NCBI GenBank assembly: GCA_046563655.1
Contig: CM102283.1
Span: forward strand, 3,162,001 to 3,226,000
Direction of reading: 5' to 3'
Source: Yuukianura sp. NJ FZ-2021
Lineage: Eukaryota
Length of the DNA stretch: 64,000 nucleotides
Below are positions 6,860 through 61,074 of the stretch, one piece after another. Each line of letters opens with the position of its first letter. The first letter of the stretch is position 1. The notes beneath the pieces were generated by a model. That model was given only the letters and a program-made list of their open reading frames with translations, had not been told where the DNA came from and did no database searches. The translations under genes and the position numbers were made by a program.

Positions 6860-7115
6860 CAAGGTTCCTTGACAACCGAAAATAAACTTCCTTTACCAGG
6901 TTGAGTACTACCTCGCTCGTTCACAAAACGAAAAAACAACTAAAATTGATACGAATCCAAAAAACTGGTACCAATTCGCATGCAAAATTTAAAAAATTCG
7001 GCTGTATTTATGACTACGATACCATGAAATGAAAGACACTCTTTTTTTTTAGAAAATCAAAAAGACAAGAGGGATTACTCAACCTGTTAAAGAAAATCAA
7101 AGTCAAACAACCTTG
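6860..7115. mobile_element. CAAGGTTG-family MITE, degenerate copy just past the stop of the CAMSAP-CH gene
   Basis: Ends caaggttcc...caaccttg; internal inverted repeat caggttgagta/tactcaacctg; similar to the 17229 copy. TSD not clear. Confidence 0.6.
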
Positions 7116-7118
7116 ACC

Positions 7119-10100
7119 TCAAAACCTGCGTGATGCTGACAAATTCCCTTGGGTCAATCGGTTGACCCGTATGATTGGATTGACCTCTAGATGTGTGAAG
7201 AGGTCAATGAGGAAAGCCAAGATGTTTTGCTTCATGTAGCCATGGACGTACAGAAAGTCGGTCACTTTCAAATGGTAAATTTTTTGCGGGAAAAAGTCGT
7301 TGCATAATTTTTGAATCAGAGTGTGGTTGAGTGTCATGTGATACAGGTTGAGCACTTCGCCGGGTTCCGGAACTGCGATGTCTTCCAGCCTCACGTCAGA
7401 GGCAAAGTACAAAGCAAAGAGCGCAGAAATTCCAACGCCGTCACAGAGGTCACGGATTTCCGTCACGAGAGCCACGTTGAGCCACCGGAGAATGTGGGGC
7501 GTTGGTGGGGCATAAGGAGCCACAGGATCATAGCAGGATCCACGATTCTGTAATTCAAAGAAAAAAGTCAAAGGAATAGAGGGATCGAATTTCGAAAAAA
7601 AAAAGTCTTGTTTTTGCAACACGCCACTTTTTTCAAATTGGCGCCCTTTATTCTCGCACGTGAATAAAAACAGATTTTGAAATCCAACTCATTGTATTTC
7701 TTTCGAAATTTTATTTTATTTTCCTTGGAAGGCAGATCATCTTACGTTATTAAATTGGAAAAAAAAACTGTCGTTCAAAGAAGTAAAATTTTGAAAACGA
7801 AAGAATCGAAAAAAATGTGTTTTATAAAACTTTTTTCAAAGTGAGAAAAACGTTTCGCACCTGAGTAGCATGGATTTGAGAAGAAGCAAGAATGCAGGCT
7901 TTGAGCGTCGTCACTGCCGAATTAATCCAACTGATGATCAATTCTTCAGGAGTTTTGGCATCTTTAGAACAAATTACATAACATTACATAATTTTTACAT
8001 AACAGTACATAAATAACATAACATGATACATAACAGTACATAAATAATATAACATGATACATAATTCACATAATTTTAGGAATTTACCATTTTTGAGGGA
8101 GTGTCCGAAACTGTTGAGGATTAGTCGCACCCTGTCCTGCCTCACGAGTTCCGTAGCGTAGAGGCTCATCAGTGACTCAATCAAGGCCATATGAGCTGCC
8201 TATTTCAAAAATTTTTGAAATTTTGAAAAAAATTGGTTTTTGAAAAAGTATTTTGAATTTTTTTATGTACGATTCTCAATGGTCTTCTTTCACGTAGAGC
8301 TCCTTCAGTAAGTTTCATGTCTGACGGTTGAGCGTCATAGACTCCTTTTCGACTTAAAACCTTAATGATTTCCCAGAGAGACAGTTTTTGTGTGACCTTG
8401 ACCTGCGCAGAACTTTCTGATTGCAACTGCGCAACTCCGATTCCATCTGAAACAAGGTTGCTTTATCACCCATTTATACAACTGTTCTAACAGGTTACGT
8501 CATAACTCTCAGTTTTTTTTTTCAAAAAAATACGAAAAAGAAACAACAAATTTTGTACGAATCACATTGGCTTTACAAGGTGTGACGTCAACTTTGCAGG
8601 CAAATGCAAAAATCAAAACAAACATTTTTTAAAACAGGAGTTATGGCATAACCTGTTAAGACAAAGCAAACAAAATATTGAGTTAAACAACCTTGGTCTG
8701 AAACTGCTCCTGATTGGTTCCCGTACAAATTGACTAGCACAAGAGTATATAACTTCCCGTTGGTCAGATCACGAATCACTTCGTCCTTGAGTCTTAGCTG
8801 TTGTTTGTCCTAAGCGGAAAAATTTGAATTTTGAATTTCAAGCATTAGAATTTTCAAAAATTTTGAAATTTTTTAAATTTTGAATTACATACTTTTTTGG
8901 ACTCCTTGTAAGGACACAGTTGAGTAGAATTTGGGGGGAGATTTTCAAAAGCTTTGGCGAGTAGCCACGTGATTGAGGCTTCCTTTTTGGACTAAAAATT
9001 TGTATTGAAATACCTCAAAATGTTTCAAAATTTAAAATTTTGCATTTTTTTTCAAAATTTTGAAACTTACTTCCCACCAAGGAGCTGAAAATTCTTTAGG
9101 CCTTTTGTGTAACCAAATAAACATGCGTTTTGTTCTCTCAATCGTAGTGTTCGAAGTTGGTCCAAAATTTCGGTTTTTGGCTTCCGACATTTCCCGCCAG
9201 CATCGCCAGCATTCTCCTTCAATTTCCAGGGGAGTTGTGCTTTTGAAATTGGCGGAATACAGTGACTCTAAATCACTCCATCCCATGCATGGATCAGGAG
9301 CCAACCAGCACTTGGGATGCGCATGACTCTGATTTTGAGTCTGCGCATGTGCAGTTTGTCCTGTTCTGAAATTAACACCGTCTTGTTGTGGTAGAGCTGC
9401 GCACAACTCGTCTTCTTCGTCTATCGTACACAGTGGAACAGTCGGTTTTTGCTGAGCTTGAGGTTCGGGAAGTGTCGGATCAATCCGGAAATTTTCCGAG
9501 TTGTGCACCGTATTTGTTGATTCCGAGTTGACATTGTTTGAATTCTGCCGTTCTGCACATGTGCAATGACAATCACAGGTTTTATTTGGTGGCGAAATTT
9601 CGGAAACGCCGGAACGAAACGAACGGTACGAATTTCCGGTTTTTGTTTTCGATTTTGAGTGTTTCACGAACTTTGGTTTTCGCCGAACCATTTTGGATTT
9701 TTTGGGAACCGACGAGGCACAGGGAGCTTGAAAAGCTAGTCGTGGAGAACTACCTACGCAGTAAGGTTTATTTTGAGTTGTTTCTGCGCAGACACCTTCA
9801 GTTTGTTCATAAGGATTCCGATAGAGACCGCCACTTATGCATTCCTGGCATCCCGGACGAAACATGCAACCATGCTGGTCTTCATCTACCGTCGGAGATC
9901 CTGATTGTCTTCCTTGCGTCTGCGCAGATCCCGAACCTTTTCCGGAATCAGCCGAAGTTGCCGTAGTTGTAGAAGTTTTTCGCAGTTTCGATTCACTTTC
10001 AGTTGGAGACGAAGAATTTGAATGATAGTTTTGAATTCCGCGGCAATTTTTATTCGAATTTGAATTTCCCACTGGACTGTGGAAACTCCCGCCAATCAGA

Positions 10101-16458: not shown

Positions 16459-18450
16459 TTAATCTAAGCGCAGAATTTTTCTGAACGCTTTTTGATATTC
16501 CTGATTGGACACTCCGTAGATGATTGGATTGAGGGCAGAGTTGACATATCCAAGCCACGTAAAGACATGAAACCAAATGACATTCGGTTTCATTCCATCC
16601 GGACACAAGGAACCAATCACATTCAAGAATCCAAGCGGCAACCAACAAATCACAAAAGCCGCCATGATTATCCCGAGCGTCTTGGCAGCTTTTCTCTCCT
16701 TGGACAAACTAAATTTCTGCTTGTTGACCAAAAAAGTGCTAATTTGGGCCGACACTTTTCGTCTCCCTTGACTCTTCGTAGACTTGCCAATGCAACTGAC
16801 AGTCCCATTGCTTTCTTCTTCCGAGACGGTTGACTTTGGATCCAGTTTGTCTGTCGTGTCAGCGTCACTTGTCAACTCCATGCAGTTGACACGGGCTCTC
16901 TCACGCAGTCGCTCTTGAATGGCATAGTAAATCTTAGAGTAGATGACTGACATGATGATGAGGGGGAAGAACAGTCCACCAATGGCCAAGTGGAAGTTGA
17001 ATCCCGGGGAACTCGGCATCTCACAGGAGACGCCGTCGTATCGAATGGCCCAATCTTCTACAGCCAGGAGCGTGGGAGAGCCAATCCACAGTGCAATTAT
17101 CCACAGGAAGAAGATGTTGACGAGGACGTTCCTCAGGTTACGCTTCTGGACGTAATGGATACCGTCAGTAATGGCCCGGTACCGCTAAAAATAAAATCAC
17201 AATTTTGAAGGTGACAAAAAACTGAAAACAAGGTTCCTTGACAAAAATTTAGTATTCTTCAAAAGGTTACGTAATACCTGAGTTGTTTACAAGAAAAAAA
17301 AGAATACCAAAAGTATCAATTCCACAAAAGAGTTTCTGGTACTCTTTAGTATGTAAAATTTTTTTAAATTCGTTTATAATATCATGATTACGTTGACCTT
17401 AAATAGAAATTATTATTATTGTTATTTTTTTTTTGTAAAATCTAAGAAAAGCACGAGTTATTATGCAACCTGTTAAAGAAAAATGGCAACAAACCTTGAC
17501 CATAAAAGTTTGAATTTTTTGTCGGGAGTGCTTACGTCAATTCCGATGGCGCAGAGATGAAAAATGGAGACGCAGCATAGTGAGACGTCCATGACCAAGT
17601 AGACTTTACACATTGCGTCTCCGAAGATCCATTTCTGGAGGATGAGTGTGGTCATGTTGTAGGGCAGGACGAGCAGCGCCACGCCCATGTCAGTCATAGC
17701 GAGTGACACAATGTAGATGTTTTGTGGAGTGCGGAGTGACCTCTTGGTGAAAACTGCTATGACAACCAACAGATTTCCGAGGATGATGGACAAGGTTATG
17801 ATAACGAGGGGGACCAAAGTCAGGACCGCTGCTGTGGTGGACATCATTTCGGGCATTCCGGATCCGGAAGTATTCGATGTGCTCCATGGTGGCACAAGAC
17901 CTGTGGAGGTACCAGAGGTACCCAGTTGGGTAGTACAGTTGACGTATACTGTATTGATGATTGTAGAACTACTGGAAGTTTCGGTACCGTTGAGCCAGGG
18001 TGAAGCGGTTGGTAGGAAGTCTGAGGTACCGGTACTGTTTTTCCAAAATGACGGCAGAAATCCGATGGTACCGTTTTTCCACGGCGGAAGGAATTCCGCG
18101 GTACCGTTTTGCCAGGATGAGGGAACGATCAATTCAGCGGTACCGTTTTGCAATGACGGGAATACCGAAGAATCTGTGGTACCGTGGGGCAAAAGCGTAC
18201 TTGAAAAAATGGTGGGAAGCTCAGACGTTGACATCGTGTCGGTATGGTATTCTGTTGAGGTCACTGGCAGTATTTCACTTTTGTCCCACTTCCAAGGTGG
18301 ATACTTCTCAGCAGTATTTGCAGTAGTATTGGCAGCAGTATTGTCAGCCATACTTGCACTAATGTTGTTTTGACTGTGGTTGGGTGAAGTTATTCCGAAC
18401 TTTCCATTGCCCAGTACGTTCGCTAGTGTCCAAATCGCAGACGGATCCAT
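16459..18450 (-). CDS. Aminergic rhodopsin-family GPCR, tyramine-receptor-1-like, 2 coding exons (18450-17536, 17184-16459)
   Basis: GNLLV, LAMTD, TM3 Asp (LVMDV), D|RY across the intron, SLSKERKAAKTLGIIM, CWLP and WLGYVNSALNPIIY. Confidence 0.9.
17229..17498. mobile_element. CAAGGTTG-family MITE, older copy inside the GPCR intron
   Basis: Ends caaggttcc...aaaccttg; internal aggttacgtaatacct/gagttattatgcaacctgtt; degenerate TSD. Confidence 0.6.
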
Positions 18451-18824: not shown

Positions 18825-20555
18825 TTAATTACAAAGTGGAATACAGAATACGCTCTGCTTGAATGGTAGGCAAATACATTTTTTTCTTAACAAATCTAGC
18901 TTGTAAGACATAACCGTTCGCTTTAAGGTTTTACAAAAGAAGATTCCAAGTAGTTTCGATTCACAAGGATAATGTTTAGCATTTTCGAGTACTCTGTAAC
19001 GCTTAACCAAAACAGTGCCTTTTGTAGTGTCAATGCTTTGTACAACACAAATATCGGTTTCATTTACAATGTAACAACATCCCACACCTACACTACTACA
19101 TTGAACATCAGATTTAGTGCCTCCTAAATCGAAACTGTTGCCTCTTTCTGTAATTCTATTAACAGTTTGCATTAAATGGTTGCTAGTACCATGAACTAAT
19201 TTTTTTAGTCTAGACATAAAACTCTCAAACTCGAAAGCACTAAAAGAGTCCAAGCTGCCATATTTCTTAACATCTTGTACCAAATGTAAAAGTGAGTGCA
19301 TATTATAAGTAATTAATTCACAGCCATATAACTCAGGAATCTGTTCAACAAATTTGCAAATTAATTGTGAGGCATATTTAAGCCAACTGGAATTCTTAGC
19401 TTGAGGAGATACTAAAATATACATAGCAGTATGAAATATCAGAAAATGTGAATACTTTTCTAGTGTCAAAATTCCTTTCAGTACTACCGGTCCTAAATAC
19501 AGCATAAACATTCTATACTCCACGGCTTTAAAATAAGCCAGGTAAGTAAGTGGACGAGGCTTCCTTACAAATTCCTTAGGAATAAATTTGCGGAGTCGCA
19601 CCATTCGACTGGAAATGCGTTCCAAGTCACCACTTGACAACTTGTAAGGACCCTTGCTCCAAACGATAAGCATTCTTTTCATAATACCTAAACAACATAG
19701 ATGCATATACTCCAGTGGTATCTCTGTAATTAGTCCTATGTTTAACTCAACAAGAGGCGAAAACCCAGTGTGGTGCTTCTTATAAATTTGATTTTTAAAT
19801 GAATTATTAGAATAAAGTGAAGTCACTTTAGCTGGGAAGCATACCCTATTGTTTTTCCAAGTGCCTCGGGCGTAACAACGTTCACAACTATAATAACCAG
19901 TATGCGGCTTTACACATTTTAAGAAAGACCGGGCGGGGGCATCGGCTATTATTGCCCTGAGAGTTATTGGATAAATCGAATTTTTGAATAGGATACCGTT
20001 TTGCTCTAAGTGTTTCATCTCCTCTACAAAATCTGCTAAAAACTCGTCAACATTTGTTGGCTTGTTATACGCGCTAAATAGTGAAATTACAAAAATTGGG
20101 TTTTTTCTAAATTCGGAAATTTTGCCTAATATTGGCCAAAATTGCAATTTGGAGCTTTTAGAAATGGGAAGTCCATCAATGTTCACAGTTAGTGTTAAGT
20201 TAGAAGACTTGGAAGGGACTTCACTTTCTAATATGCGCGTAATATTTTTTTCAATACCAAAATAAAACATTTCACCACCACTGGATTTTTTGGCGAGAAC
20301 TTTTCTAGGAGTCCTTAAAAAAGATCTGGAATCGCTAGGGAAGTTCTCATTTGGAAACCACGATGCTACTAGTTTTAGTAAATCACTAGTAGCAGCACCG
20401 GTTAAGTTATGTTTAAATACAAAATCTCGTAACTCACATTTTCTAGAAATAGTATTATTTACACTAATATTGGCATACTGTGGTGTAGTCGAATGATGAA
20501 TAGTGTCGTCAGCCAAAATCAGATTGTCTTCTCGAGGCGAAATCGCAGTATCCAT
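18825..20555 (-). CDS. CMC/EnSpm-type transposase (uninterrupted ORF; alternative upstream ATG at 20672)
   Basis: NIDGLPISKSS..FWPILG, ADAPAR..C...H.GYYSCERC, PLEYMHLCCLG, YNMHSLLHL and GSLDSFSAFEFES are motifs of animal EnSpm-like transposases. Confidence 0.88.
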   Translation of the reverse strand: MDTAISPREDNLILADDTIHHSTTPQYANISVNNTISRKCELRDFVFKHNLTGAATSDLLKLVASWFPNENFPSDSRSFLRTPRKVLAKKSSGGEMFYFGIEKNITRILESEVPSKSSNLTLTVNIDGLPISKSSKLQFWPILGKISEFRKNPIFVISLFSAYNKPTNVDEFLADFVEEMKHLEQNGILFKNSIYPITLRAIIADAPARSFLKCVKPHTGYYSCERCYARGTWKNNRVCFPAKVTSLYSNNSFKNQIYKKHHTGFSPLVELNIGLITEIPLEYMHLCCLGIMKRMLIVWSKGPYKLSSGDLERISSRMVRLRKFIPKEFVRKPRPLTYLAYFKAVEYRMFMLYLGPVVLKGILTLEKYSHFLIFHTAMYILVSPQAKNSSWLKYASQLICKFVEQIPELYGCELITYNMHSLLHLVQDVKKYGSLDSFSAFEFESFMSRLKKLVHGTSNHLMQTVNRITERGNSFDLGGTKSDVQCSSVGVGCCYIVNETDICVVQSIDTTKGTVLVKRYRVLENAKHYPCESKLLGIFFCKTLKRTVMSYKLDLLRKKCICLPFKQSVFCIPLCN

Positions 20556-20556
20556 G

Positions 20557-22049
20557 TTAAGCTGAATTTTCGGAAGAGGAAGACTTCTCTCTGGCCTCCT
20601 TTGAATTCTTTGCAGGTTTTGAACAACCTGCTGTTGAATTCGTCTTACTCGGCTTCGCCTCGGTGTCTCCATTGTCGTCTTTCTTAGAGTTTCGGAAATG
20701 ACGTCCAATAAATAAATTGAGTTTTGCGTCTGATGCGTCTTCGCCTTTGTATGTTTGCTGAACCGCAGCTGGAAATTTAAGATAAAAGTGTTAATTGAAC
20801 AATTTGTAGTAAAGAATCACAAAAAATGGAAATCGTTATACACAAAGTTAAGTTACCTCTCACAGCCAAAGCCAGAGTCAATCCACCGAAAGGAACTTTG
20901 CCAGAGTTATCCGTAATTCTCAGCTGTTTTCTTACATCCTCTGAGATTAGCAGACGTAGGGTGTTATATACCGCTTTCGACACTGGATATCCGCCGGCTT
21001 TGGACAACTCAGTGACCTTAGTATATTAACAAACACTTGGTAGAGAGTTGATTCTAGTTAAGTAATTAAAATAGTGTGATGTTGAGAATGCACTTACAAG
21101 GAACTGATATTGAGTTTGATTTTGAACTATTTGTTCTGCGATGTTCAACTCATCAATTGTTTTCAATGGCAAGGGAGGATACTCGTGACGTTGGGTGGTG
21201 ACAGTGTTTGATTGTGCAAGTGACAGACGAACAAATTTAGTCAAATCCACCATCTGTTGGTTTAAGCGCTCAAGACTCTCCAGCACTATCTGTTGGAACT
21301 CTGGAAAAAAGGAGTAAATCATTAGTTATAATAATAGATATAATTTCGTACATTAAATTGAAGAACGTCATTACCACGATGCTCATTTTGCATTTGCTCG
21401 AGGGAAACTGTCGACAGGACTGCGAATTCTCCAACGTTCTGTGTGACGCCAACTCCTGAAACACACATAGTCTCCAATAACTCAAATTGAATGAATGTAA
21501 TTAATGTTTGGGTTTGATCACCTGTATCTTGCACGGTTTGTTCCGAATCTGGATTGATTCCCAACACAAATTCCTCATGTAAGTAGGTAGTCGGTGGCGG
21601 AGGCAACGATTGGGATGCTGAAGACTGATTTTCACTCTCGCTTGTGTCCGCTAGATCTAACCTCCTGGATTTTCGTAAAATATTGGATTTCTTCACAGCC
21701 TTTTCGTGGGAATCTAAAAAAGAATACATAAATTTGGTTATGTGGAGGCACAATTGATTCAACTTTGATTATCTAACACATGCATCTTAAACCCTATACG
21801 CAATGAGCATTATCGAGTTATCCACTCACCAAATCCTTTTACGTATTCTATCTCATACTTGTCCCAGTTCTCGTCCGGTACAGATTCCGCGGATTTAGAG
21901 AGTAGTCCCACATTTTTTGTTTTTTTTGGTGGCCAGTGACACTTTAGGTTTCCTTCTTCTGGCGATATCCACTTCGACGGCACAACGGAGTATCGGTTTT
22001 CGTGTGGAAAGAATACTACTGAAAAGTTTTTGAATTGAACAGAAGTCAT
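20557..22049 (-). CDS. Transposon accessory protein (spliced; DUF4806-like C-terminus)
   Basis: FSVVFF..E..YSVVPSKWI..CHWPP N-terminus; PLPLKTIDEL, GGYPVSKAVYNTLRLLIS, and last exon ...LFIGRHFRNSKKD...ENSA*. Canonical GT-AG introns. Confidence 0.7.
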
Positions 22050-25843: not shown

Positions 25844-33999
<8,156 letters not shown>

Positions 34000-34083: not shown

Positions 34084-34896
34084 CTAAAAAAGGCTTCTGA
34101 AGACGTTTTCCTTAAAGTAGATTCCGTCTTCCCCCAGCAGATTTCCAGGTGGGGAGTATGCTGCTACCACCACGGTGCGCATGCGCCGTTGACGTATGCC
34201 GAATCCTACTTGCGTGGATCCCTTCCAGACCATGGCTGAGAATGGAGTGACTCCAGGATCTGTCCAGTTGTAGTTTTGTATGGTAGCGTACCACCGAGCC
34301 ACTGCGTGCTCCATGGCGTCAAGGACGTCAATTGACGTCTTTCCACGGTATTGGTACAAGTTTTTGACGTATCCCGGTTGCAACTGGTTCGTAAAAGTGT
34401 TTGATCGAATAAGGTGGTGGGCATATCCCAAAGCAGCAATAGATAACTAAACGAGGTCAAAGGTCAAAAATGTAAATTTTGAAATTTTAGTTTAAAATTT
34501 TACCGTTCGGTTGAGTTCTAGCGGTGGAACTCCGTGTTTCTCCCTCAGTTCATTGTGCAACTTCAAACCAAGAATGGAAACTAAGAAAAATTGGGCCATT
34601 TTAAGCCTTGTTGTCCAAAAAAACTTTCAAAATGTTTTTCAAAACGAAATTTCAAAATTGAGAACTGAATTTTTTGACGAAAAAAGAACTTACAGTTTCC
34701 TGTGACTTCCGTATCTCGTGGTTTCCCATTCTCGGTTAACTCATTGTTCAAAACTCCCTGTACGAAGTTTTGAAAAGTGAAAAGTAAAGGCTTGGATTTG
34801 AAATTTCAAAATTACAAAAATTTGATTTTTTTTTGCACTTACGTAACTGAACTTCAGAATTGTCACAAAATAAAAAATGCAAAACCAACGGCTCAT
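34084..34896 (-). CDS. Secreted stand-alone CAP/SCP (GAPR-1/GLIPR2-like) protein
   Basis: Signal-like MSRWFCIFYFVTILKFSY; LHNELREKHGVPPLEL; AVARWY; FSAMVWKGSTQVGFG; VVAAYSPPGN; ENV. Confidence 0.85.
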
Positions 34897-40357: not shown

Positions 40358-41565
40358 ATGTTTGGGAGGCTGAGTGTGGCGGTTTTACTAGTCTGGGGAG
40401 TGGCGTTGTCGAAAAGAGTGCCAGTACAGTTTCCATTTGCTAGTACCAAGGTGAGTTTACTCTCATTCTAGAGACTCTCTGCAACCGTCGATTTGTATTA
40501 ACATTTGATGAGTTTCTACTTTCTAGGAAAAACCTGATGAAGGGCTCTACTACTTTCCTATACCAGACACTTGCCCAGGTCACTTAACAAAACAAAACCA
40601 TCCACCTTCTCGAATATGTAGATGCAAGATTACTATAGCAACCATTTGTACAAATGGCTTAAGAGGTTATGTCATAATTCCGATTTTCAAAAAAAAACAA
40701 GAAAAAACAACTTTGGTACGAATTTCATACGAATTTTGTTTTCTTACCAAAAATGTTGGTTTTTTTCTTACGCTTTGCTATAGGAATCTTTAGTTTTGAT
40801 TTCGAATTGCTAACGCAACGGAAGCGTGTAAGGGTAGCGCAAGACGTGTGATTCAAAAAATTTAAAATCAAGAAAACAGGAGTTTTGACATAACCTTATA
40901 AGAAGAAATAAACAAAATTTCGAGTTAAACAAGCTTGATGTAGATGGCTGTATACTATACTGTAAATATACTACAGTACTACTATATACTATAGTATATT
41001 TACAATTTAGTATACAGCCATCTCTAGTATATATATAGTAAATATACTATATATATACATAGTACATATACAATATATATCATTGTACTATATGGTGGTT
41101 ATATATATAGCATTATAGTATATTGTACATATACTATGTATATGTAGTAAAAGGTATATGTGTACAGACGAATGTGTCTACATTCCGGAGTGTGGCCCAG
41201 GCAGATTTCTGCCCACAATGGAGGAAATGGACAAAATCGAAAAAACGAGGGGGTATGGGAATTCTAGTCGACGGTTTATCGCCACTGGGGGAGGTGACTG
41301 TGAAGGACTCTACGACCTTGACCCCGTCATTTGTCCAATTACGTCCGTTGGGGAGTGTTACATCAAGTGCGGTGGATTACGCTGTGCTACCCCAGAACAC
41401 AATGGATTCACCACCCGCAACCCTCTCCACCCTGTCGTATTTGAAGAAATGGTCCAACTCCACCGCAAGGAAAACAATCCTACGTTGAACATGTTCAGAT
41501 TCCGCGATATTGCGCAAGCCAAATACCCACAGTATAAACCTCCTCAGCCTTACTACAAATCATAA
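40358..41565 (+). CDS. Hypothetical secreted Cys-containing protein (3 exons)
   Basis: Signal-like MFGRLSVAVLLVWGVALS; donor at 40451; exon starting at 40527; last exon ECVYIPECGPG...C..C..C..C..C...YYKS*. Confidence 0.55.
40625..40937. mobile_element. CAAGGTTG-family MITE
   Basis: Ends caagatta...caagcttg; direct repeat atgtagatg on both sides; body closely similar to the 44429 copy. Confidence 0.85.
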
Positions 41566-43926: not shown

Positions 43927-44150
43927 CAAAGTTGTTTAAATCCAAATTTTGTTTTATTTTTTTAACAGGTTATGCCATGACTCCTGTTTTTAGAAAATTG
44001 TTTGTAATTTCTTATGCGATTTGTTGGCCTCGCGCCATGCAAAATAAAAAAGGATTGGTCCAAAAGTTTTTTTTTAAGTTTGTTTTTTAAATCCGAGTTA
44101 TGGCATAACCTGTTACGGAATTTGTGCAAACCGCCACTATAGCAACCTTG
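43927..44150. mobile_element. CAAGGTTG-family MITE (reverse orientation) just past the stop of fusion gene A
   Basis: Ends caaagttg...caaccttg; TSD gttttacc/gttttaag; internal aacaggttatgccat/atggcataacctgtt. Confidence 0.8.
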
Positions 44151-44161
44151 GTTTTAAGCGG

Positions 44162-47100
44162 CTAACTTGGTGTTTTGGGGAAAACATTTTCATGAAAATG
44201 CTTTCCGTTTTCTCCAAGGATGTTTCCTGGTGGAAAGTAAGCGACTACCACAATCGTGCGACGTCCATTGCTGGCCACTCCTGTGCCCATATCTGTTGTG
44301 TCTTTCCAAACAACTTGTGAAAAGGTAGAGTAGTACGGATTGTCCCAGTTGTAGGAAGAAATGTCATCGTACCAAGCATTCACTGCTGCAACTACTGAAG
44401 TCTCGGCAGTAGAGCGATTCCCTGTAACCAAGATTCCTATAGCGACCATTTATACAAATGCCGTAAGAGGTTATGTCATAACTCCCATTTTTCAAAAAAA
44501 AAATTACAATAATCTCTCGAATTTTTTTAATTTCCCGCTTTGATTAATTGTTTTAATTTCGAATTGCTAACGCAACGGAACATCGTCGTAAGATGTGCGT
44601 TTCAAAAAATTTGAAATAAGAAAAAAAGGAGTTATGGTATAACCTTTTAAGAAAAATTGAACAAAATTTTGAGTTAAACTTGCCTGTAACGTAGTACACG
44701 TTTTTGTTTATCCCCTCTTCATGCTCATTTTCAAAAGTTCCCTCTCGAATCAACTTGTTAGCATACGCTTGAGCTCTTTGTTTCATCTAAAAAAAGTTTT
44801 TGGTTTTCAGAAAAAATGATAAAAATTTGAAGTTGAAAAACAAAGTTTTATGAATTTACACGAGCACTGAGCCGGAGCGGTGGAGAATCATGCATGGAGC
44901 GGTAGAAGTTGTGTCTTTCAAGTGACTTCAACTCATATTCTAAAAATAATGTTGAAATGAAATTTCAAAAATCAAAAAAGTAAAAATTTTTAAAAAATTT
45001 TGAAAAATTTTGGATTTCATGTTTTTTAAATTTACGTTGAGTGTGAGCTCGATTTGAAAGTGGAAGTGAAGTTGTGGCTGCCTTGGCTGGAACTGTTTGT
45101 CGACGTCGATGTTGACTAGTTTTTACAACTGTAACTTCAACGGTAGTCGAGGGGTCAATGACCTCTGGGGGCGATTTTGTTGTTGAAGATGTTGCTGTTG
45201 ATGTTATTGATGTTGATGAATTTGTTGTTGACCTTATTGTTGTTTCTGAATTTGCTATTAATGTAGTTGCTGTTGTTGTTGACTTGGTTGGCGTACTCAT
45301 TGTGACCTCCGTTGTACCTTCAATGCTTTCAGGCGAAACGTCCGTCACGGCAGTCGTTTCTTCAAACGTGGCAGGAGTTGAATTTTTCAAAATTTCGAAA
45401 ATCGTTGTTATTTCTGGAGCTGCTGGAGTTGTTGACAGAGTTTTTTCAAAATTTGAAACCAAAATTGATTTGGAATTTTTTGGCGTTTCGATAGTAGGAA
45501 TAGGAGTTACTTCAATTTTTTCTGCTGTATGTATTGGAGTCGTAGATGTGTGGGTAGGAAGTGGCTGAAAACGTAAAATTTGAACTTTTTCAACAATGAA
45601 AAATGAAGGAATGAATTTTTTTTTTTAATTTTCACAAAATTTTGGTTTTACTGAATCTTGTTCATCGCCTTCTGGAAACAACTCTTCTGCTGTATCTCGG
45701 ATCCACTTGGCATAGGAGTTGACTTTAGTAAAGACGCTGTAGTTGTCACAAGATTCAAATCCTCCGCTCAAGTCTTTCTTACCGTGACTAACTATACCCT
45801 AGTGTTCAAAATTTGAAATTTTTGAAATTTTGAAATTTTGAACAAAATGGATTTGGAAAAATTCATGTGGTTTGCTACCTGAATGTAGTACCGACTGACG
45901 CCATTTGTATTTGATTTGAACATGAAACCTCCGCCGTTGTCACCATTACACGCGCCTTGAACTGAACAAGAAATTTCAAAATTTCAAAAAAAAAAAAATG
46001 TTTCGTTAAGATTATAAAATTTTGAATTACAGTTTTCAGTGCCGGCACAAAATTCGTACGGAGTGAGTTGGCGTTGGCGCCATTCAAAACACAAATTTGA
46101 ATTTACCACCGGCAGAGTCACGTTCCTCAACGTGAACGAAACGGCGTGTGGATCACCTTCACTAAACTGTCCAAAACCTACCACCTTCGAAATTTTGAAA
46201 ACTTAAAAAAATGCTTTTCAAAAAAGTTAAAAATTTTTAATTTTGGCGCTCAATTTACCTCTCCTTGTCCCATTTCCTCTGTAATGTCAACGCTTCTACT
46301 GAAACAAGCTGGAATTACGTTAGGGTTTAGCTCAACCGTTTTGATAAGCGAAATAAGTGCGATATCTGCCTGAAAATCTCCTGGAATTCCTTCAAACGAT
46401 TTGTGCAAAACGATTTTCCTAACCTACATACATAAAATTTCAATTTTGGAAATGCTAAAAATTTTAAAATTTTGAAAAAATTTTAACCTCATGGATTTGG
46501 ACATCTTGAAGACCTAAGTTTTCCTCCAGAGAACTAAATTCCCCGCCAAGAACGATTCGAATGTTTTCAAAATCTTCGCGCCCTTGGTGCACTTCATTTG
46601 CCAAGCAGTGTGCAGCTATAAATCCATTTTTAAAAACTTTCAAGTTTCCAAGAAACTTTGAATTTTTGAGGAATTTTACCTGTGAGGATCAGAAATCCTT
46701 TGTTGAAGGGCTTAATCAAGGTCCCACCACAAATATATTTGAAATCCGCAGTTAAATTTTCGCGGGAAAAAATCGATGCGTGCCAAGGCCAGAGTTCTCT
46801 CCGCGTTTCAGTTCCGCCAACGACAAATCCAACTGCATTGGCTAATTGTGGTAAACCGCAGTTTATGGCACAGGAAAACGCCAGGAACTCGGCTCGACCA
46901 ATCCACTGACTCCGCGGACTACAAATCAGCTGACCATCTTCAACGTCGTCGTTGAGTGCGACGTAGTAGTTGTTAACGCAGTTGTACGTTGCGATCGTTC
47001 CCGTCGGGAGTTTTGCACCACCGTGACAGTCAATGACTTCACCAGTGTTGGAGTTCTTGCAACGCACTCTCACGCCCTGCGCAGAATTCAAAATTTAAAC

Positions 47101-47569
47101 GAATTGCGCATGTATCTCATTTCCCAATTTAACTCAATCAGGCCGATTCCAAAATCACCTTGGTGAGTAATGTTAACTGCTAGGCTGTAACCTTATCTAA
47201 ACGGCGGACATCTAATCATCAGAGATGTCAAAAATATGTGCTATGCTAAAAACCCCCGAAATATGGACAAAAAATATGTTTTTTTTGTTAAAACCGGCCA
47301 AATATTTCCTTACTTAATAATAAGGGCATGGACAAATAATAAATATTTAGAAACAAAAACCCCACAAATATTTTTTCTGTTAACATTAGAGGAATGGAGA
47401 CTGAATATGTTTGGCATCTCTGCTAATCATGCACCGGAGACGCGAAAAAATTTACATACCGAGTAATTTGGTAGGTTTAGTTACTTACTTCTCGGTAGAT
47501 CAACGAATCACAGTCAGCGGAAATTCCAAGGATAAAAGACGACAGCAAAAGTATAACAAATTTTAACAT
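44162..47569 (-). CDS. Fusion gene A: signal peptide - Sushi/CCP-like - non-catalytic serine protease homolog - Thr-rich linker - CAP domain
   Basis: VVGG..WPWHASI..ICGGTLI..TAAHC..ADIALI..ACNGDNGGG (catalytic Ser to Asn). In-phase splices lead into a Thr-rich exon and then HNFYRSMHDSPPL..AVNAWY..FSQVVWK..YFPPGN. Confidence 0.85.
44429..44682. mobile_element. CAAGGTTG-family MITE forming a GC-AG intron (44422-44683) in the CAP domain of gene A
   Basis: Perfect 8-bp TSD cctgtaac at 44421-28 and 44683-90; family-diagnostic internal inverted repeat. Confidence 0.88.
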
Positions 47570-48282: not shown

Positions 48283-51024
48283 TCACGCCTCATGTGCATT
48301 TCCTCCAGTAATCGGTGGGAAAACGTTTTCAGCAAAAGATTTTTGTCGTTCAGAGGAATTAACTGGAGGTCTATCGTACTTGACCACCGCAAGTTGTTTT
48401 TTCCCACGCTGAGCCACGCCCACTCCAATCGCTGTTGTGCGTTGCCATACAATTTGTGTAAAGGGATTTGCTCGTGGTGATGCAAAATTGTAGTTTCCGG
48501 CAGTTTTGTACCAATCGCGAACGGCGTCTTGAATGAGACGTGTGGCTGGTACAACGTTACCAGACAAGCCGTACCAGTTCGTAAATCCAGAAAATTTAAA
48601 ACGGTTCGTAGCCAACGCTTGTTCAGCTTCGGCTTGAGCGAGTTGGCTCAACTAAAAACAAATAAACACAAAATGTTCAACATTTTTTCTTCAAAGGAAC
48701 CAAAATTTGAGACCTTTTTTTCGGTAATACTGGTTTACCTGATGAGAAATTTTGACTGGCGGAGCTCCGTGGCGCCGACGGAATAAATTGTGTTGCAGAA
48801 CAGCTGTGATTTCGTAATCTGAAAGAGTTGTATGGTTAACTTTTGTTGACAAAATTACAAGTTGACAAAATTGCATGTTGATCAAATTGCAAGATGATGA
48901 AGACTACCTTTCATAGAGTTGTCAAGGGCGGAATTGACGTCAGGTTGGTCTGGCTCTACGAGAGCAATGACGTCAGGATCCTGCGTTCGAATTAAACTGT
49001 GAATTATGTCTTGAATTGCAATTGGCAATGACGCAAAGTCGTCTGGGTTCAATTCGTGGTCAGCTGATACCGTTTCTGGCACGGAAGTTTGCAATCTCTG
49101 CGAAGATTGCGGTAAAGTTGGGCGCGGAGTTTGAATCTTGGAAATGGCGGGAATCCGAACTTGAATTTGTTCAACTGGCGCCTGAGGGGTCAAAGGTCGT
49201 TCCGCCCGAGGAGTTTCTTGAAATGAATTCGGGTTTGGCTAAAAACAGATCAAACCGGTTTTGAACTTATTCTTAAACAAATTGGCAAATTAATGCACAC
49301 TTTTTAAGTTTACCGCGAAAAAAATTCGTAGGAAAAATTTTCGCCAGCAAAACTTTCGCGAAAGTCAACTTTTTTTTTCCTCACCTGAACTGACTGTTGA
49401 TGTCGCTGTCTCTCTTCATGCAGTTCCAGGGCAGTTTGTTTGATCCAATCTGCATAGTCACTCACGCCAATAAACCAACTGTGCTTTCTACATGTACGAA
49501 GTCCCTCTCCCAAAACGCCCTAAAATTTTCAAAATTTTAAGATTTTTTGAAATTTTGAATTTCCAGTTTCTAGAAAGTTTTAGTATACCAGAATGAAATG
49601 GCGCTCAGAGTTGGCTGAAAAGCGTGGAAACAAAAGTCCGCTACCAAAGTCTCCGTCGCAAATATTTTTTCCTACATGACAAAAAAAAAGTATGCTTTCA
49701 AAATGTGTTTCTTTCCAAGTTTTTCAAAATACATGTGATTTCAAAAAATTGTGTCTTTCGAAATTTTGAAAACTTACCTTCGCTACTTCCAGCACAGAAG
49801 GAATGTTTAGAAATTATTCGCGCCCTTTTGTCAATGCAGTTTCCAAGCGTGACTACTCCTGCGCTGATATTTCGCAGGGCGTCGTTTGTACTTTTTTGAC
49901 CAAACCCAACTAACTATTTCAAAATTCAAAATTTTTGCATTTAAAGTTTCAAAATTTTGAAAAATGTAAAATTTGGGAACTTACTTGACCAAATGTGGAT
50001 TCTTGGAGTTGGTGTTTGGCAAAATCGACGCTCAGACTGAGACATGCTGGTAAAACCATTTTGCTTAAAACTGTTTCACGGGAAAGCTGAATCAGCGCCA
50101 GCAGACCATCATCTTCCGTTACAATTCTTCTGACCTAAAAATATTTCAAATTTTTCAAAAATTTGAGTTTTAGATTTTCGAAAAATGATAATTTTGTTTG
50201 ATTACTGGAGAAGTTTGTCCATTGCTTTTGTGTCTGGAGTTTTTCTCGTGTGAAAAAAGTCCGAGACGAATTTCGATGTCTTCCGGATTTCTGTTTCGGA
50301 CGCATTCGGCTCCCGTGAGAACCAAAAGTTCGTCGGCGTTAAAGGGATTGATCAAAGTCCCGCCACAAGCAAATTTGAAATTTTCTGGGGCAGAGTGAGA
50401 CTCCCGGGCAAAAATTCCTACATGCCAAGGCCAAAATGTATGGGCAGAATCCGGGTAAGATTTACCACAATCTGTGTCAAAAGTTCAAAATTTTGAAAGG
50501 TCTGCAGAAGAGATAAATTTCTGAAATTTTGAATTTTCAGAATGTGGTTTCTCACCCATGTGACACGAAAAAGAGCGAAATCTCAAATCCGGCGTCCATT
50601 TTCCATTTTTTGAACAAACCATTTGCCCTCCAGTGTCTCCGTCATTTGTGACACTTTTGGAACAAAAAAAAAAACATTTTTTTTTCAAAATACTTCTTTT
50701 TTGAATTTTTTTTTGAAACGTACAAGAAGTCTTCGCATTTGTATTTCGCAATTGTTCCTGGCGGCATTCGCATTTTTTGACAATCCAAGGACTCTTTTGT
50801 ACTTGGATGTTGACACTCAATGTCAACTCCCTAAAATTCAAAATTTCAAACAAAAATCATACTAAAAATCTCTTTTTTTTAAAGTTTTCAAAATTTTTCA
50901 AAAAGTTTTAGGTTCTTACTGTTCTGAAAGACAGTGACTCACAACTCTGTCCTTGTGCAGACACTTTTCCTAAACCCATCGCAGCAACAAATTGCACAAA
51001 AACTAAAACTTTAACTTTTTCCAT
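48283..51024 (-). CDS. Fusion gene B: signal peptide - Sushi/CCP-like - non-catalytic serine protease homolog - Pro/Gln linker - CAP domain
   Basis: FWPWHVGIF..FACGGTLI..LTGAEC (His lost)..ICDGDFGSG (Ser lost). In-phase splices lead to HNLFRRRHGAPPV..AVRDWY..FTQIVWQ..ENVFPP. Shares intron positions with gene A. Confidence 0.82.
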
Positions 51025-57818: not shown

Positions 57819-57917
57819 CTTGATTCCCAATTAACTGCAAAGGTAAGCAAACATTAGAGCTAACAAGCAATTAACTTCGCGTTTAACTTAATTAGTTAAG
57901 TTTTATTAGTTTTTAAC

Positions 57918-60433
57918 GGGTGTATCAAGACAGCACCTCATCACCGTCAAGCCAGCACCTCAATTTCAGCACCGTCAAGACAGCACCTCATTTCAGCACC
58001 TCAGCTCTGTGTCAAGCCATCACCTCAGCACCTCAATTCTTTTTTAAAAAGTGAGGTGTTTGGGTGCTGACTTGACATATCCCCCCCGGTGTATAAAGTC
58101 ACACCTCACTTCTAGCACCTCACTCCATATGTTAAAGGGTGCATCATAAAAAATTCAATTTCAAACATAGAGTTGTCATGGGTATTTTTTGATTTTTTCT
58201 CTTTAACTAGAGTGGACATTTGGCATTTTTTAAACTAATTTTTTGAAGCAAATTTGAAGAGGTTTGAAGAGGTAAAAAACCGCTTTCATCTGAAGTTTAA
58301 GCACGGTTCACACAAACTATCAAAATGCGCATAACTGCGCTAAAACTGCGCATGAACTGCGCATGAACTGCGCACAAACTAAATTTTGATTATGAAATAC
58401 AGAATGCAGCATGAAACTGGGCATAAACTGCGCATAACCTGCGCACTAGATGCGCATAAACTGCGCACTAAATGCGCTAAAACTGCGCACAAATGGCGCA
58501 GTTTATTATTTTTGGAATTACCATTTCTTCCAGAAAGTCTTCCAGAAATTCTTCTATAAATTATATTTGCTCAGAATCAGCTTATCAAGCCCTTTCCATC
58601 AAGATATTACTTGCATGGGGTTGCCTGTCATAAGGTCAAGTGGTGACCTCAGAGGTCAATTTGTGACCACAAATCACAAAACCATTTAAAGCTAATCACG
58701 TTTGGAATAATAATAATGGTTTCTGGCATTCGTTTAGAATTCCATTTTTTCTATAAGTTTATACGTGCGATTTCAACTTGAAATCTCTACGTTAACTTTG
58801 ACAGCAAACGTAGAAGGAAAGTGATCAGCTGCAAACGCGCGTTCTACGTTCAAACCTACGATGTCAACTCCTCTAATTACTAAAAGCCCAACCAAACCAC
58901 TATTTGTAATTGTAACAACAAAACTGATTTTCAGAGGACAGTAGTGCTAGTCACACAATAACTTCCAATTCCGGAATTATTCAAACTGCGTGGAAATAAT
59001 GTGTTGTGTGAACCGTGCTTAAAGATTTTTTTTTCCATTTTTCTGAAAATTTTTGGAGAGACACTACATAGACCCCTCATAACAAAAAGCAAAAAAAAAA
59101 AATGACCGGAAATCAAAAAATCAACGGCTCGGTCTAAAAAGCTGCAACTTTTCCTATATGTTAAGAGCATGGGAAAAGGCTGCAACTTTTCCTTACAATT
59201 AACATGGCTAAAAAGCTGCAATTTCGGAGGCTGCAAGCGTTATACTAAAGTACCCAGACCACATGTTGGACATGACCCTCTGTCCGTCTGTCCGTCGGAC
59301 AACCTTACCAAAACTACTTTATGCGTTCCAATGTCACTCTATCTGACAAAGTTATCAAAGCTACTTTATGAGTTCCAATGTCACTCTGTCCATCTGACAA
59401 AGTTATCAAAGCTACTTTATGAGTTCCATTGTCTCTGTCCAAATGTCAGACTTGCCAATTATGGAATTGAGAATTCTTAAATAAAAAAAAACCAAAGAAT
59501 CACAAGTTAATACGGTTTCGCCCTGCCGTCGTCATTAGTACCGGGCAACACGGTAGACCGCAGTGCAATGGCCCCTTCGCGCATGACATCTGAGAATTAC
59601 GTCTCTGGTATGTTATGCAGGGTATGGTCCTTGTAGTATTCATAGTAACAATTGATTTCCCTTTATCATAATAAATATTTTATTGGAGAAGGAGTTTTAG
59701 TCAAACATTTATCTGCCTTGCCAATTATGTATTTAGATTATTAATAAGTTAAAATTTGTCAGATTGGTAAAATTGGTAACTTTGTCAGATAGACAGAGTG
59801 ACACTGGAACTCATAAAGTAGCTTTGATAACTTTGTCAGATAGACAGAGTGACATTGGAACGCATGAAGTAGTTTTGGTAACGTTGTCCGACGGACAGAC
59901 GGACAGATTGTCATGTCCAACATGTGTTCTGGGTACTTTAGTATAACGCTTGCAGCCTCCGAAATTGCAGCTTTTTAGCCATGCTAATTGTAGGCAAAAG
60001 TTGCAGCCTTTTCCCATGCTCTTAACACATAGGAAAAGTTGTAGGTTTTTAGACCGAGCCGTAGATTTTTTGATTTCCGGTCAATTTTTTTTGCTTTTTG
60101 TTGTGAGGGGTCTCTGTAGTGTCTCCCCAAAAGTTTTCAGAAAAATGGAAAAAAAAATCCTAGATTTGAAATTGAATTTTTTATGATGCACCCTTTAACA
60201 TTGGGAGTGAGGTGCTAGAAGTGAGGTGCTGACTTGACGCACCGGGGGGGATGCGTCAAGTCAGCACCCAAACACCTCACTTTTTTTAAAAAAAAATTGA
60301 GGTGCTGAGGTGATGTCTTGACGGTGGGGTATCCTTTAACACAGAGCTGAGGTGCTGAAATGAGGTGCTGTCTTGACGGTGCTGAAATTGAGGTGCTGGC
60401 TTGACGGTGATGAGGTGCTGTCTTGATACACCC
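57918..60433. mobile_element. Mutator/Foldback-like non-autonomous element with long modular inverted repeats
   Basis: GGGTGTATCAAGACAGCACC TIR; perfect 9-bp TSD gtttttaac; outer arms ~57918-58170 and ~60161-60433 with cagcacctca subrepeats; inner arms ~59023-59450 and ~59757-60159. Confidence 0.88.
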
Positions 60434-61074
60434 GTTTTTAACCAATTAATTAACCTGTTTTCCTCTCTTTTTAATAGTTACCAAACAAGAAACACCGGAT
60501 CAGACCAGCTGGTTGAGTACAACTGACTAATCGAAAAGTAAGGCGTATCTGAATTGACTAGTCTTACTACGCAGTCCACTCACTTTCTGGAGAGTGTACC
60601 ACTATAAACAAGATAAAAATTTTCTAATCAACTATGAAGAATTGGTATAACTTTTCCTTTCTGTGGACTTTGCAGCAGGATACTTTGCTGAAACAGAGAC
60701 AAGGGAAGGAAGATCTTGTTATTCTGGAAGGCAGAAATACACAACATCAAGAGCTAGAAGCAGCAGCAGCAGATAATCCAAGCCAGAGAACAGATTTGTT
60801 GCTTCTGTTTTCAGTTGGGGACTGGATTGAATTGACAGTAGCTGGAGACTCCAGACTGGAGTTCACGAATGTTCTCGTGAGTTTCATAAAGTTGTATGAT
60901 TTAACAACACATCTTTATTGACATTCGAGTGAAAGCTTAACTTATAAGCTTTAGTTTTAGCTGCTTAAAAGCATATGTATAATGCCATTTTTGATGTTTT
61001 ATCGAAGATGTTATGAACAAGAACAACTTCTGTTTTGCAGGTTTTTGAAAAGGCTGACGCTGTCCAGGAGCTAA

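Follow-up and report, generated by a model that had tools for sequence, protein, structure and literature searches.

Bursts of intron gain are currently attributed above all to introners, introns made by transposons. According to a 2022 survey, these elements, which carry terminal repeats and target-site duplications, obtain one splice site or both from the duplication, some families use GC donors (0-50%), and codons are sometimes added to the message (PMC9860276). The same survey reports introners in just two animal groups and finds them 6.5-fold commoner in aquatic species (PMC9860276), and the surveyed introners come almost only from aquatic, unicellular or fungal species, with very few animals among them (PMC9860276, PMC12130899). 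Here we describe a 64,000-nucleotide (nt) stretch of contig CM102283.1 (positions 3,162,001 to 3,226,000; the whole stretch is hereafter called the window), in which a short non-autonomous repeat, element A, splits a coding exon of gene A, a gene for a secreted protein with a trypsin-like domain and a CAP domain. An earlier reading made from the letters of the window (hereafter the sequence-only reading) proposed that this miniature inverted-repeat transposable element (MITE) is removed exactly as a new GC-AG intron, and we consider such an introner-like intron gain to be probable.

A second described system bears on this locus. Exon insertions of maize Ds and other hAT elements carry 8-bp duplications and are spliced via donor- and acceptor-like termini, giving partly or fully functional alleles. 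Element A resembles these alleles in being an exonic element with an 8-bp duplication and splice-like sequences near its termini. The Ds and hAT alleles are, however, imprecise, leaky and mutant, whereas here the best splicing solution is exact and the locus may be fixed.

An insertion in a once-continuous CAP exon

Gene A (44162-47569, minus strand) has 11 exons and encodes 708 amino acids when the proposed intron is removed. Its model was built by hand and is backed by Pfam matches and a collinear orthologue on a metagenome contig, L001. An automated search for pairs of open reading frames (ORFs) with iterated splice-site matrices converged on noise and was unusable because short ORFs are too frequent in this A+T-rich window. 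The product comprises a signal peptide, a trypsin-like domain (GDNGGG), a Thr-rich linker and the CAP domain. Exon 2 matches the Pfam Trypsin profile below its cut-off (E 0.0021), and exon 11 (44165-44419) matches CAP (PF00188) with E 7.8e-8 and 33.6 bits against a cut-off of 21.1. The insertion lies between exon 10 (44684-44786, minus strand; MKQRAQ...NVYYVT plus the G of the next codon), which aligns at 79% to L001 4944-5052, and exon 11 with its stop codon (44162-44421, minus strand), which aligns to L001 5087-5299. All nine other introns are GT-AG and 65-86% A+T; eight are 64-96 nt long and one, intron 1 (47077-47488), is 412 nt. Intron 1 contains a 23-nt inverted-repeat pair (47215-47237 and 47405-47427), possibly another small element, and its position is spanned by one tblastn segment in the alignment to L001.

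Element A itself (44429-44682, minus strand) is 254 nt long and matches the profile of its family, described below, with an nhmmer E of 2.8e-53. It is flanked by an 8-bp target-site duplication, GTTACAGG, whose two copies (44690-44683 and 44428-44421, minus strand) are identical at 8/8 positions with the 254 nt in between; since the ends of the element are set by the other family copies, such a match at preset positions has a chance of about 1.5e-5. The first copy belongs to the upstream exon apart from its last G, which is base 1 of the proposed intron. The second provides a TTACAG acceptor, and the downstream exon opens with its last G (44421). On the coding strand the element starts with CAAGTTTAACTC and ends with CTATAGGAATCTTG, and it has a subterminal 30-nt inverted repeat that is 83% complementary. 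In codons, the minus strand reads TAC GTT ACA G, then GCAAGTTTAAC...CTTGGTTACAG, then GG AAT CGC; in longer form, AAC GTG TAC TAC GTT ACA G, GCAAGTTTAACTC ... CGCTATAGGAATCTTGGTTACAG, GG AAT CGC TCT. Compared with copies B, C and D of the family, four nucleotides (GGTT/GTTG) are missing from the coding-strand 5' end of element A. The right-hand boundary of the element depends on the alignment that shows this deficit, and through the deletion G + GCAAGGTTG becomes G + GCAAGTTT. The coordinates and sequence statements of the sequence-only reading for the element and its perfect duplication were all rechecked and are correct.

Homologous exons are uninterrupted in three other places. In the window, two paralogous CAP exons are continuous at the homologous site, as the sequence-only reading had noted: 48283-48651 (minus strand), which reads YGLSGNVV and matches Pfam CAP over 48286-48651 (1.4e-9, 39.3 bits), and 34084-34446 (minus strand), a CAP paralogue by alignment that reads YQYRGKTS; both align to YYVTG/NRS of gene A. 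The third is the orthologue. A search with exon 11 among proteins of similar length gave one match, P0001, a 118-residue protein with 74% identity from contig L001; the same search for longer proteins gave no match, and hence no full-length annotated or transcript-derived protein from a closely related species. Nor did either search find a transcript-derived protein of the host species itself. P0001 consists of one ORF reading MKQRAQAYADKLIREGTFANENEKGINKNVYYVTGSGVRAET..., in which exons 10 and 11 are joined without a break. The synteny between L001 and the window extends over both tandem genes, which follow in the same order, and the intron preceding exon 10 is at the same position in gene A and L001. 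At the insertion site L001 reads TAC GTT ACG GGG AGC, so that it holds the target once, as GTTACGGG, with one synonymous difference. The ortholog check that the sequence-only reading had suggested thus finds an empty site with no intron, and the presence of a MITE inside a coding exon is borne out by the family copies, the duplication and the empty sites alike. The exon insertion is real and, because L001 and both paralogous exons read through the site, it is the derived state.

Over the last two exons, gene A and its L001 orthologue share 89 of 118 residues, with 0.15 of nonsynonymous sites (pN) and 0.77 of synonymous sites (pS, saturated) differing. This relative is therefore distant, and its empty site dates nothing and gives only the direction of change. 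Measured against an outgroup paralogue, the nonsynonymous divergence (dN) of gene A amounts to 0.634 and that of the orthologue to 0.592. The last two exons of gene A show no sign of decay.

Splice signals at the borders of element A

The proposed GC-AG intron (44683-44422, minus strand) is 262 nt long and 71% A+T and consists of the element plus one duplication; in context it reads CAG, GCAAGTTT...GGTTACAG, GG. Its removal would join NVYYVT-G-NRS in frame with a net change of zero and leave the 708-codon frame of gene A intact. The sequence itself agrees with the sequence-only reading on all three points: the donor is composed of the last duplication base and the terminal repeat, the acceptor lies in the second duplication, and the frame is restored exactly. 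When all GT/GC-AG pairs near the junctions were listed and checked for an open reading frame, only the GC donor at 44684 gave an in-frame product with good sites, either with TTACAG (exact) or with CTATAG (+15 nt). Two GT donors (CAA/GTTTAA and TAC/GTTACA) were rejected, since they shift the frame or pair with poor acceptors that delete conserved residues.

Genuine GC-AG introns usually keep a strong consensus in the rest of the donor. The donor CAG/GCAAGT matches the consensus CAG/GTAAGT at 8/9 positions, compared with 4-7/9 for the nine other donors of gene A, and the features of a U2-type GC-AG intron are present together: GC at +1/+2, a near-perfect remainder of the donor, and a TTACAG acceptor. 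The region before the acceptor is pyrimidine-poor, and several other acceptors of gene A are equally so. For the RNA of the proposed intron, folding gives one long hairpin with an energy of -50.8 kcal/mol and a z of -2.3 against shuffled sequences.

The repeat family and a second split exon

Full-length relatives of element A were first found by BLAST against the window. An nhmmer search of the window with a profile made from four copies (A-D) returned these four, all full-length, at E 1e-53 to 1e-57, and copies E, F and G were recognised by eye. The family has at least seven copies in the window, with termini CAAGG...CCTTG and duplications that are mostly 8-9 bp; the termini common to the family are CAAGGTTGYTWTAG and CAAGGTTGTTTAAC, and its two ends read CAAGRTTNCTATAG... 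and ...GAGTTAAACAACYTTG. The copies are 220-313 nt long, without coding capacity, hairpin-forming, and located in and near genes. Copy B (40625-40937, plus strand; 313 nt) has the duplication (A)TGTAGATG, identical at 8/8 (9/9) positions, and a Pfam scan of its flank gave no match and no coding context was found. Copy C (8453-8695, minus strand; 243 nt) splits a CAMSAP CH-domain exon and has duplications at 8445-8452 and 8696-8703 that agree at 7/8 positions. Copy D (43927-44150, plus strand; duplication 6/8) is oriented opposite to A in the 3' flank of gene A. Copy E (26436-26653, plus strand; profile E 0.002) is diverged with the same termini and has the duplication CTAGAAAAC, 9/9 (8/8). Copies F (17229-17498, plus strand; duplication 5/8) and G (6860-7115, plus strand; no recognisable duplication) lie in older introns, F in that of a G-protein-coupled receptor gene at its DRY motif and G in that of the CAMSAP gene. 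In all, five of the seven copies are flanked by duplications, and two, A and C, would coincide with whole introns, whereas B and E have no assigned context. Copy D begins 11 nt past the stop codon of gene A, and a transcript reaching it would hold two family copies capable of pairing with each other.

From its 8-bp duplications and CAAGG ends, the family looks like a hAT-like MITE; CAAGG fits YARNG, which we take to be the pattern of hAT termini. The likeness to ordinary hAT-type MITE insertions extends to the occasional 9-bp duplication, the shortness of the terminal repeats and the small non-coding hairpin copies. Fixed MITEs are normally not found in coding exons, and here the family differs in that two of its seven copies interrupt exons of genes that are intact in other respects. 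A search for a transposase partner gave none: the one large transposon-like ORF, at 18825-20816, has no Pfam match. Spread by reverse splicing of an intron was rejected because non-genic copies carry duplications too. The pairwise identity among copies A-D is 67-78%, so the family is old or diverse. Together with the distance of the sole relative that has an empty site and the fact that no near-identical copy was found, this leaves the statement of the sequence-only reading that the intron gain is recent without support. As a separate observation, the heptamer GGAATCG stands directly 3' of the second duplication of both A (44414-44420) and C (8438-8444) on the minus strand; in A it overlaps the last duplication base, and copy B has ATTCG at the equal offset. 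This heptamer could be a target-site preference, chance, or a clue to the true end of the element.

Copy C offers a second case of a split exon. It lies between two minus-strand ORFs (flanks 8271-8444 and 8696-8809) that are in the same frame across the duplication. The host is a CAMSAP/Patronin gene: the CAMSAP2-like CH profile PF25532 is collinear on four successive exons (profile positions 16-46, 47-79, 77-117 and 119-135), and the next exon scores above the CAMSAP_CH (PF11971) cut-off with 39.4 bits. A HMMER search with the downstream flank found seven proteins, six of which are short ORFs from other organisms that contain both flanks in one piece, and so the CAMSAP exon is continuous elsewhere. 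In the best splicing solution, the donor ACCAAG/GTTGTT (5/9) comes from the terminal repeat and the acceptor, CCTTGTTTCAG followed by AT, from the duplication (TTTCAG). The corresponding intron (8691-8447, minus strand; 245 nt, GT-AG, junction 8692^8446) would add 6 nt in frame within a variable loop, and its RNA folds with a z of -3.5 against shuffled sequences. With respect to its host gene, copy C is oriented as copy A is. Given the one mismatch in its duplication, copy C is not brand new, and the surrounding CAMSAP exons are intact nonetheless. On these sequence features, the second exon-splitting copy supports and strengthens the claim for the family.

To gauge how often such configurations arise by chance, each element with an 8-bp duplication was inserted at all 2275 positions of both host coding sequences. 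For element A, some in-frame GY-AG pair was available at 44% of sites and a donor of at least 5/9 with an in-frame YAG at 21%; the frame was restored exactly at 5.5% of sites, and at 1.6% this coincided with a donor of at least 7/9. For copy C, a donor of at least 5/9 with an in-frame YAG occurred at 6.0% of sites. A pair of insertions that were neither selected nor spliced would seldom look as A and C do, and survival of spliceable insertions only would explain both configurations. This supports splicing indirectly and does not prove it.

Set beside described introners (PMC9860276, PMC12130899), copy A likewise is non-autonomous, has terminal inverted repeats, is flanked by a duplication and is placed exactly at the would-be intron. 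As reported for introners in those sources, the splice sites would derive partly from the duplication and partly from the element, and the predicted message would be unchanged (A) or gain a few codons (C). One Aureococcus family described there also has an 8-bp duplication, with four element bases left in the message. The differences are that the remaining copies of the present family are found in ordinary introns, in a 3' flank and between genes, that the family is old and diverged, that it is known from the sequence of one window, and that its host appears to be a terrestrial hexapod. Moreover, copies A and C would use different donor positions, and the element therefore carries no single fixed splice design.

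A probable intron gain and its alternatives

We propose the following course of events. A short non-autonomous DNA transposon inserted in the continuous CAP exon of a secreted trypsin-like/CAP gene and duplicated GTTACAGG; this much is shown. The last G of the first duplication and the first bases of the element together make the strong GC donor CAG/GCAAGT, and the end of the second duplication makes the acceptor TTACAG/G. Removal of the element with one duplication (262 nt) would restore the old frame, so that the normal message is most likely still made, and the inverted repeats may fold the intron into a hairpin that draws both splice sites together. We infer that the spliceosome uses these sites and that the family behaves repeatedly in this introner-like way. 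For element A, this course is the one we favour, with reasonable though not high confidence. Of the introner-like gain put forward by the sequence-only reading, the insertion in a once-continuous exon and the sole good frame-exact splice pair hold, and copy C adds to them; its recency lacks support. The wider proposal is that of a working introner family in a springtail-like terrestrial hexapod, which would have seeded new introns genome-wide, including in CAMSAP/Patronin, with splice sites improvised from the CAAG/GT terminus and AG-containing duplications. We put this forward tentatively and would give it somewhat less than an even chance.

Several observations weigh against intron gain at gene A. 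The proposed intron is 262 nt long, compared with 64-96 nt for eight of the nine other introns of the gene, and it requires a rare GC donor. Under loose criteria, 21-44% of random sites have some in-frame pair. Five sequencing runs matched the stretch and no RNA run was among them (all are DNA, four from one sample in study P1 and one from another organism in study P2). Only two copies split exons, both on gene models of our own making. In addition, the catalytic serine is gone from the protease domain of gene A (CNGDNGGGF at about 45944, minus strand, against CNGDSGGGF in the orthologue at about L001 4104, a Ser to Asn change), which could mean relaxed constraint, and gene A belongs to a tandem family whose paralogues could allow its loss to be tolerated. 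Finally, the perfect duplication allows a young insertion, and if the insertion is young, neither the intactness of exon 11 nor its ordinary divergence tells anything about splicing.

One may argue from these points that the insertion simply breaks gene A. In this main rival explanation, the element is retained in the message, translation stops inside it and the CAP domain is truncated, so that either the whole gene or its CAP module has become a young pseudogene, or the assembled individual carries a deleterious allele. The read-through frame (...YYVTGKFNSKF...AIRN*; ORF 44553-44786) does meet a stop 42 codons past the junction, and the perfect 8/8 duplication, the tandem duplication of the gene family, the serine change absent from the orthologue and an intron that is long and GC-AG, unlike the others of the gene, would all fit a disrupted allele. 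The serine change loses much of its force when the neighbours are considered, however: paralogues in both the window (GDTGGQ) and L001 (GDFGGG) are also without the catalytic serine. Protease homologues without catalysis seem to arise again and again in this gene family, and the loss is therefore a family habit rather than a sign of decay. The remainder of gene A is intact, with 708 codons and nine canonical introns, and its protein shows no excess divergence against the outgroup. Moreover, only 1.6% of random sites would be expected to give a splice solution that is both exact and strong, and the sister copy C, whose host is a conserved CAMSAP gene, has an in-frame solution of its own. On balance we regard disruption as unlikely, though it deserves more weight than the explanations that follow.

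It is less probable still that the element is removed from the RNA in another way, namely through the acceptor CTATAG (first exon base 44436, +15 nt, adding GILVT), through another pair, or as a mix of isoforms. CTATAG is part of the conserved terminal repeat, and no other AG comes between it and the likeliest branch region. Paired with the GC donor it would keep the frame, and introner families that add codons are known (Gozashti 2022, PMC9860276). The added residues would sit inside the CAP domain, however, and TTACAG/G is closer to the CAG/TAG acceptors of gene A, so that exact removal appears the better candidate of the two. An assembly or haplotype artefact, with the repeat misplaced or present in a minority of reads, might be suspected in view of seven copies in 64 kb but is very improbable, because it is real transposition, and not misassembly, that leaves exact family ends between clean 8-bp duplicates.

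Other features of the window

Several further features were observed. The ORF at 18825-20816 (minus strand) is uninterrupted over 663 codons, which is unusual among the short exons of the window, and is possibly transposon-derived. A large palindrome of 540 nt at 36287-36816 matches its own reverse complement at 82%, and inverted repeats of 270-390 nt with 87-93% identity at 57895-58165, 59024-59460 and 59771-60454 belong to another, younger repeat family. A short-period tandem repeat (CAVRSL / AHKLRT in translation) at 30378-31139 is found a little upstream of exons for a Na/K-ATPase. Scans of the window for Rfam families and tRNAs gave no match.

Host and significance

The host was described in the sequence-only reading as a terrestrial arthropod, and one Na/K-ATPase exon is consistent with this description. 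Over 211 residues it is 79% identical to Orchesella dallaii and 78% to O. cincta, both springtails, and at most 74% to other named taxa among the 120 matches listed. A springtail-like hexapod is thus a reasoned guess, based on one exon of a multi-copy gene family. No introner report for springtails or other land arthropods was found in the literature searched, though the supplementary species tables of the two surveys could list one.

The locus presents, in what is probably a land arthropod, two independent exon insertions of one MITE family, each time with an uninterrupted ancestral exon in relatives. If the two copies are not spliced, they are a pair of disrupted alleles of little interest. 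If they are spliced, they show that an ordinary MITE needs no fixed splice design to turn into an intron and can use whatever its own terminus and the duplicated target offer, GC donor included. Should the family prove to be a working introner family, transposons would be creating introns, now or in the recent past, in an animal that lives on land, a setting for which surveys found almost none; confirmation would reveal a known kind of introner in an unexpected host.

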